Assembly: GCA_965202665.1 (NCBI GenBank)
Contig: OZ241841.1
Span: 2,624,001 to 2,688,000, forward strand
From: Candidatus Spongiisociaceae bacterium
GTDB taxonomy: Bacteria; Actinomycetota; Acidimicrobiia; Spongiisociales; Spongiisociaceae
Length of the DNA: 64,000 nt
Direction: 5' to 3'
The notes beneath the pieces were generated by a model. The model made no database searches and was not told the DNA's origin. It saw nothing but the letters and a program-made list of their open reading frames with translations. Shown piece after piece: positions 35,976 to 43,346 of this stretch. Numbering within the stretch: position 1 is the first letter of the stretch; each line of letters opens with the position of its first letter. The position numbers and the translations under genes are program-made.

Positions 35976-35981
35976 TTTTGG

Positions 35982-36010
35982 TTGACGGGGGACGTCTTTT
36001 AGTTTACAAT
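35982..36010 (+). promoter_or_regulatory. Sigma-A-like promoter TTGACG-N17-TACAAT (cargo copy 1)
   Basis: Near-consensus boxes just after the DAG kinase stop; homologous to 37967-37994. Confidence 0.65.
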
Positions 36011-37040
36011 GAGCGTGCTGTCCATTGGAGGCAGAGGTGAGCCTGAGCCCGGTAACGGGTATCTTTCAGCGGAGGATTTACAAATTAAAAATATTTTTAG
36101 CTACCTTATTTTGCTATTAGCTTTGTTTGCTTCTGGTTGCACCTCAAATGTTGGGACTGAGACACCTGTTGACCAGGACAGTCCTGTCGATGTGATAACT
36201 AGTACTTCGGTACCGACAGTTTCTACAACTGAGAGTGACATAATAACTACTCTCACCCGAGATACTGTTGCAGATAAGACCCGAGTTTTAGGGCCAGCAT
36301 GGGCGGATCAGCAAAGATGGTTTAATCCTCAAAGATGGTTTAATCCTCAACCTGAAGCCGTTTTTGAAATTTATCGTGATTATATTTTGAATAACCCTAA
36401 TGATCTTTCTACTCCGATGGGAGCATTATGTTGGGCCCAACATGAGACCGAAAGAGCCGTAGCAAGATATGTTACCCGCGATGGAATGGATAGTGGCATT
36501 ATTCCTCTCTATGTTGATTTATTAGGTTTAACAGATGAGCAAGTTGGGACAGGTGAGCAACCAATTGAAGTTTTACGCGAGCTGCTTGGAGATGACAATA
36601 GTGAAATTGGGCCAGTTGGTAATGTGGATGATAACGGTGATAGATCTAATAGTTCCGGGCCAGCTGATATTTCAGAAGACGATATAACTGTATCAGATGA
36701 AATATTAGAGCGATTTAAAGTTGCTTGGCGAACTATGGTTGAACCTCTTGACGATATTGGAGGTGAGGGGACTGAATGGAGAGCGATATTTCAGAATGTC
36801 GTCAAACCCGAGGTGTTAGCCGCTACTAGAGCAGGTTCTGGTTTGTCTGCTCCTCTTCAGAAATTTGCCGAGGAGTTATTTGCTACAGTTGGTGAGTATC
36901 TGGATGGTACTAAAACTGATTTGTTAGAACCGAACGGGTTGACTTATAAGCTTATCAATTGGGATCAGTTTGTTGAAGAGGCTAAGTATTCCCAAGACTG
37001 TAAACGGGCCTGGCTTGTTATTGGAGGAGTTGAGCAGTGA
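36009..37040 (+). CDS. Lipoprotein paralog A of an unknown family (candidate immunity protein); homologous start codon is ATT at 36084
   Basis: Lipobox FASGC; family motifs NNPNDLSTPMGALCW, GPVG, GEGTEW, EEAKYSQDCKR. Confidence 0.8.
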   Translation: MSVLSIGGRGEPEPGNGYLSAEDLQIKNIFSYLILLLALFASGCTSNVGTETPVDQDSPVDVITSTSVPTVSTTESDIITTLTRDTVADKTRVLGPAWADQQRWFNPQRWFNPQPEAVFEIYRDYILNNPNDLSTPMGALCWAQHETERAVARYVTRDGMDSGIIPLYVDLLGLTDEQVGTGEQPIEVLRELLGDDNSEIGPVGNVDDNGDRSNSSGPADISEDDITVSDEILERFKVAWRTMVEPLDDIGGEGTEWRAIFQNVVKPEVLAATRAGSGLSAPLQKFAEELFATVGEYLDGTKTDLLEPNGLTYKLINWDQFVEEAKYSQDCKRAWLVIGGVEQ

Positions 37041-37067
37041 GCCTAGCGTACATTGGCCATTAGGTTT

Positions 37068-37241
37068 AGGATTGTGAGGGGGTCCTTGGTTTGAGAACCG
37101 CTTCGGTTTAGGCTTTCCCCGTAGGGCCGTCGCCGGTGCGGCGCGGAGAGTTAGGAGGGTTATGTCTGTTGCAGGCGGGGGCAGGCGGGGGCTGGCGGCG
37201 GTGGTCGGGCAGGGGATGGGCGTTGGGCGTTTTGGCCGCGG
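37068..37241 (+). repeat. Degenerate copy of the upstream region and 5' end of the LRR-SLH gene (about 46017-46179)
   Basis: tccttggtttg...taggctttccccgtagggccgtcgccgg...aggagggttatg...gggatgggcgttgggcgttttggcc occurs at both sites. Confidence 0.9.
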
Positions 37242-40537: not shown

Positions 40538-41640
40538 AAATAATCGTTCCCTTTTTTCTTATTATAATATTAGCTTTGGTTACTACGGGTTGCTCCCTAA
40601 ATGTTGGGGCAGAAACAACCCTTGGCTTTGAGAGTCAGGCTACTGATACCACAGATGGTCCTTCCTCAATTCCGAAGGTAAATGAGGATGAGCAACAAAC
40701 TGATAGTGCCATTGCCAGCAATACTTCTACTTCTGTGCCCGTTACGGATTCGGAGCCCGCTACTACGACCATGGTAGGAAGTAGCTTTCCATCCGTTGAT
40801 GGTAATATATTATCAGGTGTTAATGTTGTTGAATCTACTACTACCACCACCACTACCATCCCTAATCCTATTGATGCTCGCCCTCTTAGTCAGGCTTGGA
40901 TTGAGTCAGGCTCGCTAAGAAATGCTATTGGTTTGTTAGAGGATGCACGTGTTCAGGAAGAATACTGGTTGAATAATCCTAACACCTTATCAAATCCTAT
41001 GGGTGCTTTTTGTTGGGCTTTTCATGAAATATATCGCTCCGTATGGAGATTATTGAGTTTTGATATTTTAGGTTCTGAAATTGAATGGCTGATGACTAAA
41101 TTAGATATTACAGTTACACAGGTGGGAGAAGAAGGTATTGATAGGAATACGGCTGTGCTTAACATCCTAGCTGAAGGCGATAATCAAGATACTGCTCCAG
41201 TAGGTAATGTTGAGGGGGGTGATGCCCAAACAAATACAATAGAACCTGGTCAAGATAGAACTGATGAGGAGTTGGCTAGGCTATTGTTTTATAGTGATGA
41301 ATATATTGAGCACTATCGTATTGAGAATAGGATTGCAGGTGATGGAACAGAATGGTATGATGCTCTAAGAGCCGTTGCCGATCCTAAAGTTATCGAGGCC
41401 ACTAGATCAGGTGACGGTCTGCCTACCGTTGTGCAGCCTTTTGCTGATCGCTTCTTTGGGAGAGTAAATATGCTATCTGTTGATGCTAGATCGGCAACTG
41501 ATGACTATTATGCTGGAGATTTCTATGATGCCTTTAGTGAGGAGATACCTTTGCCTTCGGATTTAGTTGCTTTTTTGGAAGAGGCAAAATATTCTCGAGA
41601 CTGTAAACGGGCCCACCTCACCATTCTTGACTACAAGTAG
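40534..41640 (+). CDS. Lipoprotein paralog B, coupled by ATGA overlap to the PLA2-like gene (candidate cognate immunity protein)
   Basis: Lipobox-like VTTGC; NNPNTLSNPMGAFCW, GDGTEW, EEAKYSRDCKR. Confidence 0.83.
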   Translation: MKIIVPFFLIIILALVTTGCSLNVGAETTLGFESQATDTTDGPSSIPKVNEDEQQTDSAIASNTSTSVPVTDSEPATTTMVGSSFPSVDGNILSGVNVVESTTTTTTTIPNPIDARPLSQAWIESGSLRNAIGLLEDARVQEEYWLNNPNTLSNPMGAFCWAFHEIYRSVWRLLSFDILGSEIEWLMTKLDITVTQVGEEGIDRNTAVLNILAEGDNQDTAPVGNVEGGDAQTNTIEPGQDRTDEELARLLFYSDEYIEHYRIENRIAGDGTEWYDALRAVADPKVIEATRSGDGLPTVVQPFADRFFGRVNMLSVDARSATDDYYAGDFYDAFSEEIPLPSDLVAFLEEAKYSRDCKRAHLTILDYK

Positions 41641-41649
41641 GGTGTCGAC

Positions 41650-42111
41650 ATGTCAGAGAGAGTTGGAGGACAAATAAAATACATATTAAGAGTAGTAGCC
41701 TGTTTATTAGTTGCTTTAGCAGGTATTGCCTGTGCTTCCTCGGTGGATGATATTGATGAAGTAGTCTATGCTCAAGAATCACCAAGTGTTGAGACTAGTG
41801 CTACTATAGTTACTAGTACTGTAGCTAATATTGAGGGTGAGATAATAACTACTCTCACCCAAGATACTGCTACAGATAGGACCCGAGTTTTAGGGCCAGC
41901 ATGGACGGATCAGCAAAGATGGTTTAATCCTCAATCTGAAGCCGCTTTTGAGATTTATCGTGATTATATTTTGAATAATCCTAATGATCTTTCTACTCCG
42001 ATGGGAGCATTATGTTGGGCTCAACATGTGGGCGATAGTTGCATCAATTATCTTACTGCTCTAGATGGTCAAGATATTCTATATTGGAGGATCGAAAATG
42101 CCAATTTGTAA
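41650..42111 (+). pseudogene. Truncated lipoprotein paralog C fused to an effector-like C-terminal remnant
   Basis: Lipobox-like GIAC. Near-identical to paralog A up to CWAQH, then switches to ...SCINY...ILYWRIEN. Confidence 0.75.
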
Positions 42112-43093
42112 ATTTACTTGGTTGCTTCTGTTTATTTGGGTGCTGGCGAGTTCTGCCTGTTCAGTCGATGTCGTTGCTGAAACCTCACCTGTCGACCAGG
42201 GTGGTTCCACCCAAGTGATTACGAGTACTTCGGTACCGATAGTTTCTACAACTGAAACTGCAATAACCGTTGTTACTAGCGTGGTTACCACCACGGTTGC
42301 TACGTTAGATTTAAGTCCAGCGTGGATCGAAGCGCAAGAAATGCTTCGAAGGTTATATACCACAGAATCATCAAATGTTGAAGGGCTTCTCGCTGAACAC
42401 TTGGCAGATTCTCGTTTTTATGATAAGTATATTCGCGAGAATACGAATAATATATTATCTTCACCAATGGGAGCATTATGTTGGATTTACCAAGAATTAC
42501 GCAGAACGCATGAATTGTATTTAAGTAGAATATATGCTGATGAACACGCCGAAGAAATACTTGGCCTATTGGGGGTTGTCAATGAAAATTATAATAGTCA
42601 GGGCTCATTAGATTTTTTGTTAGATTATCTGACGGGGAATATTATCATTGACAATGATGACAATAATGGTCCAGTCGGCGTTGTTGATGAAACCAATAGT
42701 GTCATGTCAGATTTGGGAAATTCAATAGAAAATGATGAGTGGACAGACAAAGATTTCTTAAATGCCTACAGGAATCCGGAAATGATCGAGTTGCTTCGAA
42801 CAATCCAAGAGGGAGCTGGTGATGGTACGGAATGGATTCCTGCTGTTCGATCTGTGATGAGGCCTGAGGTACGAGCCGCCATCAGAGTTGGTAAAGGATT
42901 ATCTCCGGATGTTCAATTATATGCAGATGCTTTGTTCAAAGCAGTTCAGGATTATATAGATAGTGATCAAACGGAACCTTCTAGCTTTTATGAAGATTTA
43001 TCGGGTTTCCATGATTTTGTTGAAGCAGCCAAATATTCTCCTGATTGCAAAAGATTGTCTATCGCTTTAGACGAAATATGGGGTATGCTTTAG
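42098..43093 (+). CDS. Lipoprotein paralog D (candidate orphan immunity protein)
   Basis: GGAGG RBS; lipobox-like ASSAC; LSSPMGALCW, GPVG, GDGTEW, EAAKYSPDCKR. Confidence 0.82.
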   Translation: MPICKFTWLLLFIWVLASSACSVDVVAETSPVDQGGSTQVITSTSVPIVSTTETAITVVTSVVTTTVATLDLSPAWIEAQEMLRRLYTTESSNVEGLLAEHLADSRFYDKYIRENTNNILSSPMGALCWIYQELRRTHELYLSRIYADEHAEEILGLLGVVNENYNSQGSLDFLLDYLTGNIIIDNDDNNGPVGVVDETNSVMSDLGNSIENDEWTDKDFLNAYRNPEMIELLRTIQEGAGDGTEWIPAVRSVMRPEVRAAIRVGKGLSPDVQLYADALFKAVQDYIDSDQTEPSSFYEDLSGFHDFVEAAKYSPDCKRLSIALDEIWGML

Positions 43094-43346
43094 ATTTTAT
43101 TGAAACAGTATCAAACTTATTACGTGGTTCTTCAGAGATTTGGAAGATAAGAATGAATAATATATTAAGGGTAGTATCCCCACAGCCCGCCCAACCTCTA
43201 AAACTACACCTGCCGGAGGCATCCCTATACTCCTATCCCACAATACTAACCCACCAAAAAACATAGAACCAATTTGCATATCAAAATTGCTGGTGCTAAG
43301 ATTTGCTATGGTGGGTTTGTAATATACCAGAAGGAGGATAGTCAAA

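Follow-up and report, generated by a model that had tools for sequence, protein, structure and literature searches.

Why would a bacterium place a lipoprotein gene directly behind the gene for a putative secreted phospholipase, and keep further copies of that lipoprotein without the enzyme? The question is posed by a locus in a 64,000-nucleotide (nt) stretch of DNA, here called the window, from a Candidatus Spongiisociaceae bacterium (contig OZ241841.1, positions 2,624,001 to 2,688,000), whose family we take to belong to the Acidimicrobiia. One intact gene at this locus, the effector gene, encodes a phospholipase A2 (PLA2)-like domain followed by a ricin-type lectin. It overlaps the next gene, which encodes a lipoprotein, by the sequence ATGA at 40534, as an initial annotation of this DNA had observed.

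In the Tle/Tli pairs of type VI secretion systems (T6SS), a lipase is neutralized by an extracytoplasmic, often lipidated immunity protein, and the immunity genes may be duplicated. The initial annotation proposed an effector and immunity array of a comparable kind. Candidatus Spongiisociaceae is described as a sponge-associated family (PMC11525543), and a term search of that text gave no mention of toxins or phospholipases.

We put at roughly 0.63 the probability that the locus encodes an exported antibacterial PLA2-lectin toxin together with a downstream lipoprotein that would block it at the cell surface, extra and orphan copies acting against the variant toxins of relatives. From the sequences we infer an immunity function for the lipoprotein family and phospholipase activity for the effector. 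The observation itself is real and, on the genomic evidence given below, well supported.

Results

Linkage of the lipoprotein to PLA2-ricin genes

The initial annotation expected homologs of the lipoprotein to lie consistently downstream of PLA2 genes, and they do so where the PLA2 gene also encodes ricin. A member of the lipoprotein family, hereafter family A, stands directly 3' of all 12 PLA2-ricin genes that could be scored, which come from sponge symbionts as well as from free-living Acidimicrobiia: those of the window, the same-genus genome G001, G004 (four genes), loci L045-L048, G269 and G171. G171 shows the ricin end only. The G269 gene (L074:8718-10589) is truncated at the 5' end and lacks the beginning of the catalytic motif; the lipoprotein behind it is intact. 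None of the 12 ricin-less controls, made up of nine small standalone PLA2 genes, L050 and two genes for long PLA2 proteins, has a family-A member close by. The two long genes, L062:330-956 in G308 and L064:1782-2339 in G230, are followed by unrelated lipobox proteins, candidates for further PLA2 immunity families.

Of 61 related genomes, three (G001, G004 and G009) encode full-length family A, and each of the five PLA2-ricin genes of G001 and G004 has between one and five family-A genes directly behind it. When metagenomes were scanned with the effector, eight real relatives came back; in all four that include both ricin and downstream DNA, a short lipoprotein bearing the family-A motif comes next. 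Across 401 class-level genomes, independent searches, one with the lipoprotein and one with the effector, converged on the same locus both in G269 and in G171, and in G296 the lipoprotein is present with no effector match within the 650 nt to the contig end. The short free-living and long symbiont forms are homologous in a profile-profile comparison free of circularity (probability 97.2, E 3.6e-11). A sample of 400 other genomes from across the phylum yielded no family-A match.

A second enzyme type with its own lipoprotein

The initial annotation missed that the effector's stalk is polymorphic and has a metallopeptidase version with a lipoprotein family of its own. The Cys-rich stalk also occurs on an FN3 domain and matrixin-like HExGHxxGL metallopeptidase at six loci, five in G004 and one in G015; four of the six peptidases pass the Pfam cut-off. 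In 29 genomes of the family, a second lipoprotein family, B, lies within 2 kb downstream at 25 of 25 peptidase loci; at six of these, the loci whose N-termini were compared, the stalk is present. Families A and B are unrelated in sequence and are never mixed between enzyme types. Because the same stalk goes with A when it carries PLA2-ricin and with B when it carries the metzincin, the sequences indicate that the lipoprotein partner tracks the enzyme type and not the stalk.

The stalk-FN3-metzincin genes (L097-L102, in G004 and G015) come with arrays of up to five family-B genes or domains. A C-terminal domain of about 125 amino acids (aa), ending in WHIDxTIP and without a Pfam match, is found on metzincin proteins and on some family-A lipoproteins (L097:7548-9923, L026:9495-11681). 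Two PLA2-ricin genes of G004 (L024 and L025) have a third stalk type with YSCPSSPSGYRYSRRSG-like repeats. The free-living PLA2-ricin proteins (L043-L045, L047-L050) have, instead of the Cys-rich stalk, another N-terminal domain ending in a PW…FDP motif. In the ESM Atlas this domain appears in unnamed actinobacterial and phage clusters (0.91-0.93), and in weaker ones fused to DUF2599, PLA2 and DUF4258; it may be another toxin carrier.

Divergence of the tips

How fast do the parts of the locus change? Between the window and G001, identity is 92% for TatC and 85% for HelY, falls to 75% in the stalk repeat, and is 46% for PLA2, 26% for ricin and 38% for the lipoprotein. The locus has three features of polymorphic toxins: a constant N-terminal delivery part with interchangeable tips, a tip-specific gene directly downstream, and orphan cassettes or poly-immunity arrays. 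Downstream lipoproteins specific to the enzyme, tandem arrays, orphans and rapid divergence together form the genomic signature of a polymorphic toxin-immunity system. Intact orphan toxin-tip cassettes were not seen, only short remnants.

Lipoproteins that outlive their enzymes

That effectors are lost while lipoproteins are kept, as the initial annotation suspected, recurs at three loci: the window's 36009 copy, the corresponding DAGK site of G001, and L028 in G009. At each, the enzyme is deleted and its leader is kept with the lipoprotein, the remnant's match being reached by 0/500, 0/2000 and 0/2000 shuffles, respectively. In G001 the lipoprotein is fused to the first codons of an effector leader and has 68% nucleotide identity to the window's 36084 copy; the L028 copy begins with a G004-type leader. 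G009 has two family-A loci and no effector match in its genome. In G001, family A is amplified to five genes.

Family B behaves alike. No peptidase match lies upstream at 16 of its 41 loci, and the window's own genome holds five family-B loci and no metallopeptidase match. These five loci comprise six genes (G000:C1:366436, 371366, 391569, 469507 and 1520464-1522271), several of which look broken.

History of the window locus

Guanine-plus-cytosine (GC) content is 39-44% at the locus against 64% in the genome. The four lipoprotein genes (36009/36084, 40534, 41650 and 42098) are paralogs with 30-55% identity in blastp; four pairs align well (E 3e-44 to 8e-21), and 41650 matches 40534 and 42065 at E 3e-9 and 6e-7, respectively. 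By tblastn, the 2.77-Mb single-contig genome has no family-A copies besides these. The claim of three further paralogs in a low-GC locus therefore holds for their kinship and composition, with the qualification that 41650 is truncated and the start of 36009 is doubtful.

The 3' end of the DAGK gene and the promoter are present twice (95% over 412 nt), and behind the first lipoprotein lies a segment of the right flank; from this we deduce a tandem duplication of the cassette. Upstream of 36009 lie the duplicated effector promoter, ribosome-binding site (RBS) and GTG (116 nt aligned) and a 27-nt match to the effector's 3' end, whose score none of 500 shuffles reaches. The effector-type GTG and the effector-3'-like stretch meet at a junction within about 20 nt. 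In this first copy, on the sequence evidence, the enzyme is deleted and the promoter and lipoprotein are kept. The 36009 lipoprotein is itself a mosaic, with a 40534-like 5' end and 42098-like and 41650-like segments. Its ATG overlaps the -10 box, and at the start position of the relative P0014 (MKNIFSYL...) the window reads ATT, at 36084, 7 nt past GGAGG; expression of this copy is uncertain for both reasons.

A likeness to the effector's 3' end had been claimed upstream of 42098 as well. There the DNA matches the window's own effector end weakly (21/500 shuffles). The encoded tail matches the C-terminus of the G001 effector (0/2000 shuffles), and four of the nine effector ends tested stand at 57/2000 or below. 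The same tail has a YLTALD stretch that resembles a lipoprotein C-terminus (0-7/2000 shuffles against four proteins). Since it is like both ends, we read it as a mosaic junction. The 41650 gene is a 153-aa truncation without the C-terminal half and the second conserved Cys; P0011 is the full-length version. Of the four lipoprotein genes in the window, two are thus clearly intact, a third may or may not be expressed, and the fourth is a fragment.

The stretch from the effector to 42098 is found again in public contigs from three studies, and the 36009 copy is covered by two with no base difference, so the layout is not an assembly artefact. One of the three studies differs by a 15-nt in-frame tandem indel in the PLA2 domain (39944-39958), a difference between strains.

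Table 1. Features of the locus and its flanks (window coordinates).
Feature	Position	Strand	Basis or remark
YegS/DAGK-family lipid kinase gene, left flank, after tatC-helY	35085..35975	+	Pfam PF00781, PF19279; syntenic in G001
Promoter-like site, copy 1, TTGACG-17-TACAAT	35982..36010	+	duplicate of 37967-37994
Effector remnant: effector-type RBS/GTG and effector-3'-end-like stretch, 27-codon frame	36037..36120	+	
Family-A lipoprotein, orphan copy (reading frame from 36009), ATT at ancestral start	36084..37040	+	
Right-flank copy (of 46030-46193, 84%)	37083..37254	+	
Degenerate second DAGK gene copy, tandem-duplication scar	37240..37959	+	95% over 412 nt including promoter
Promoter-like site, copy 2, TTGACG-16-TATAAT	37967..37994	+	
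Intact effector-like gene: basic N-terminus and hydrophobic helix, Cys-rich repeats, Thr-rich linker, PLA2, ricin-B	38021..40537	+	
Cys-rich repeat stalk, common to metallopeptidase-tipped proteins of relatives	38330..39000	+	
Prokaryotic PLA2 domain	39800..40006	+	
Ricin-B lectin domain	40040..40534	+	PF14200, E 3.5e-6
Family-A lipoprotein, cognate position; lipobox Cys20, Thr-rich linker, all-helical core (model), conserved Cys pair	40534..41640	+	
Truncated family-A lipoprotein, mosaic tail (lipoprotein end and effector end)	41650..42111	+	
Family-A lipoprotein, full length, 331 aa, lipobox Cys21	42098..43093	+	
SLH and glucose/sorbosone dehydrogenase gene, low-GC passenger in island	43347..45059	+	Pfam; missing from G001 site
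Thr-rich cytochrome c lipoprotein-like gene, low-GC passenger, convergent with SLH-dehydrogenase gene	45060..45980	-	Pfam

The effector and the family-A protein

The effector open reading frame runs from 38009 to 40537, with its likely start at GTG 38021 behind GGAGG and the second promoter-like site. The protein has a basic N-terminus, a hydrophobic helix (KD19 2.5) and 42 Cys in total; GC drops from 60% in the 5' half of the gene to 39% in the 3' half, the switch lying between stalk and tip. The codons for its terminal Trp-Arg double as the GGAGG ribosome site for the gene that follows, an arrangement repeated in G001 and at two G004 junctions.

Is the catalytic domain a PLA2? The name given in the initial annotation stands on homologs and on a profile match to a solved structure, because the window's own Pfam score is weak. 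A profile of six homologs matches 1faz, a Streptomyces PLA2, at E 9e-6, and the match aligns the His-Asp pair and second Asp. The C-x-x-H-D motif and the second catalytic Asp (His612-Asp613 and Asp631, numbered from 38009) are invariant in 12 aligned homologs. Six of the 11 homologs scanned pass the PF09056 cut-off, G001 among them at 30.1.

Searches for family A returned 50 and 84 proteins, and no protein returned bore a meaningful name; the named records that carry it are Candidatus Spongiisociaceae. As the initial annotation held, the family is unrecognized: the core of 80 members has no Pfam match, and NCBIfam, PDB sequences and the ESM Atlas gave no real match. The core carries the motif NPNDxSTPxGxLCW...LP...F...C and a conserved Cys pair. 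An AlphaFold2 model of the 260-aa core is all-helical (predicted local distance difference test, pLDDT, 86.8; predicted template modelling score, pTM, 0.84) and has no Foldseek match in the PDB at E<=0.001. By inspection, a lipobox Cys (Cys19-21) ends the hydrophobic signal, and lgt and lsp are present in the genome, so that the proteins are probably lipidated by Lgt and Lsp.

Discussion

Proposed mechanism and the points against it

How might the parts work together? The effector would be exported by Sec and folded with disulfides, and Lgt/Lsp would lipidate the lipoproteins and so tether them to the outside of the membrane. The stalk may hold the enzyme, or release it, past the producer's lipoprotein layer. 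At a neighbour, the lectin would dock on glycans and the PLA2 free lyso-lipids, damaging the target membrane. The cognate lipoprotein would bind and inhibit the enzyme directly; paralogs and orphans would guard against foreign toxin variants, the targets being kin.

Several points weigh against this proposal. The window's PLA2 domain scores E=0.18 on PF09056 (12.8 bits against a cut-off of 29.4), which makes it the most divergent from that family, and it has Ser616 where nine of the other 11 homologs have Tyr and one has Trp. G001, G004 and G009 are kin, so that the linkage counts are not independent, and the lipoproteins of L045-L048 went into building profile A4. Pairwise identities of enzyme and lipoprotein are uncorrelated over 45 pairs (Spearman -0.19 and 0.17, not significant). 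An enzyme exported by Sec would share a compartment with its inhibitor and would need some way to escape it in active form; this problem has also been raised for the Staphylococcus aureus lipase TslA (PMC10941976). Linkage and orphan copies are evidence that the lipoprotein is selected for on its own, not of what the enzyme acts on, which could be the sponge host or dietary lipid. Finally, the lipoprotein may contact the ricin lectin, since family A follows only ricin-bearing PLA2.

The alternative that survives best, although we think it improbable, is self-protection: the enzyme would act on food lipids, predators or the sponge host, and the only role of the lipoprotein would be to shield the producer's membrane from enzyme secreted by itself or its neighbours, with no bacterial warfare. 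A lectin joined to PLA2 or a metzincin suits eukaryotic glycans and matrix, and the largest expansions were found in sponge-symbiont genomes. The Tannerella potempins, lipoproteins that inhibit linked secreted peptidases and protect the outer membrane (PMC9890683), give this idea a precedent. Yet the pair also occurs in free-living Acidimicrobiia and on an activated-sludge contig, and arrays of paralogs only 30-37% identical, with orphans in enzyme-free genomes, exceed the needs of self-protection.

Still less probable is a lipoprotein that serves as anchor, foldase or activator, holding or maturing the enzyme at the surface, perhaps through the ricin domain. Tight translational coupling, the extracytoplasmic location of both proteins and the confinement of family A to ricin-bearing PLA2 genes, with none behind ricin-less ones, would fit such a helper. 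A helper is useless once its enzyme is deleted, however, and the lipoprotein is kept with promoter or leader at three loci, is amplified in G001, and has in family B a counterpart with the same pattern. That the lipoproteins are variable surface antigens or adhesins travelling with secreted enzymes in low-GC islands is very improbable: Thr-rich linkers, FN3 fusions in 2 of 80 family-A members, mosaic paralogs and the terms in which the S. aureus Lpl/TilA family was first described (PMC10730906) are compatible with it, but their strict place directly after a specific enzyme type (12/12 and 25/25), A and B unmixed, speaks against it.

Relation to known systems

The immunity reading has its closest parallel in S. 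aureus, where the lipoprotein TilA inhibits the lipase TslA with a Kd of 14.2 nM and occurs in variable tandem arrays (PMC10730906). Both systems link a phospholipase to a lipoprotein with variable tandem paralogs in a monoderm host, and in both the site of action would be the outer leaflet. TslA, however, is a Ser-Asp-His lipase with an LXG-like domain, TlaA helpers, type VII secretion (T7SS) export and an upstream immunity gene of the DUF576 lipoprotein type (PMC10730906), whereas the window has a His-Asp PLA2 with ricin, a signal helix and a downstream lipoprotein. We rejected assignment to the TslA/TilA type: the effector and 80 family-A members lack LXG/WXG and DUF576 Pfam matches, and the locus has no small helper genes. 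The T6SS Tle/Tli type was also set aside, as TssC/VipB (PF05943) has no match in the 94% complete single-contig genome and the lipase family differs. The absence of a dedicated secretion system, asserted in the initial annotation, holds at the locus; elsewhere the genome carries an unlinked minimal type VII-like pair, one WXG100 gene adjoining a 1371-aa EccC-like FtsK gene (G000:C1:1498663-1503537).

The simple Gram-positive signal-peptide toxin/immunity gene pairs of the Lipocone paper share a signal peptide, a low-structure linker, a lipid-directed enzyme and a membrane-anchored cognate immunity protein; their enzyme and immunity folds (BamE-like and others) differ, and the main text of that paper has no mention of Acidimicrob- (PMC12419801). 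By analogy, the locus would work like TslA/TilA and these pairs, outside the T7SS and T6SS lipase systems. The KLIKK peptidases of Tannerella, metallopeptidases included, likewise are secreted enzymes each with its own linked lipoprotein inhibitor, but in this diderm pathogen each enzyme has a single potempin, a 98-132-aa beta-barrel encoded upstream (PMC9890683). Family A, all-helical by model, downstream, arrayed and often orphan, is not of the potempin type.

The founding survey of polymorphic toxins lists a Tox-PLA2 tip, identified in silico, with the prokaryotic PLA2 fold, names T2SS/Sec for its export and includes actinobacteria among the carriers (PMC3482391). Its table gives RHS/ALF repeats and no immunity protein (PMC3482391); at the window locus the stalk is Cys-rich, a lectin forms the C-terminus and the partner is a defined lipoprotein. 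The present analysis therefore names a candidate partner for Tox-PLA2.

In the literature covered, chiefly open-access main texts, we found no description of a PLA2-ricin/lipoprotein pair or of interbacterial antagonism among sponge symbionts and free-living Acidimicrobiia, to which the locus points. Judged by sequence, there are two new candidate immunity families and a new stalk; both lipoprotein families were unannotated, and one has a confident all-helical model without structural match. A wider proposal, to which we give even odds, is that Acidimicrobiia own a polymorphic toxin platform free of secretion machines: a Sec-exported, disulfide-rich stalk with swappable PLA2-lectin or metzincin tips, each neutralized by a new lipoprotein family, with antidote arrays and orphans stockpiled by sponge symbionts in a kin arms race within the host. 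On this proposal family A would have a new helical fold and would be the first family of protein inhibitors for PLA2 of the prokaryotic type. Because the enzyme and putative inhibitor domains are small and soluble, the proposal lends itself to direct tests; natural inhibitors of PLA2 and metzincins also have a wider interest for biochemistry.

Surroundings of the island

Other patches of lower GC (50-55%) lie at window positions 1001-2000 and 9001-11000, the latter with an open reading frame at 9443-10795 on the minus strand that has no Pfam match. To the right of the island (46110-48164) is a gene for an LRR and SLH protein, one of about 30 SLH-domain genes in the genome.

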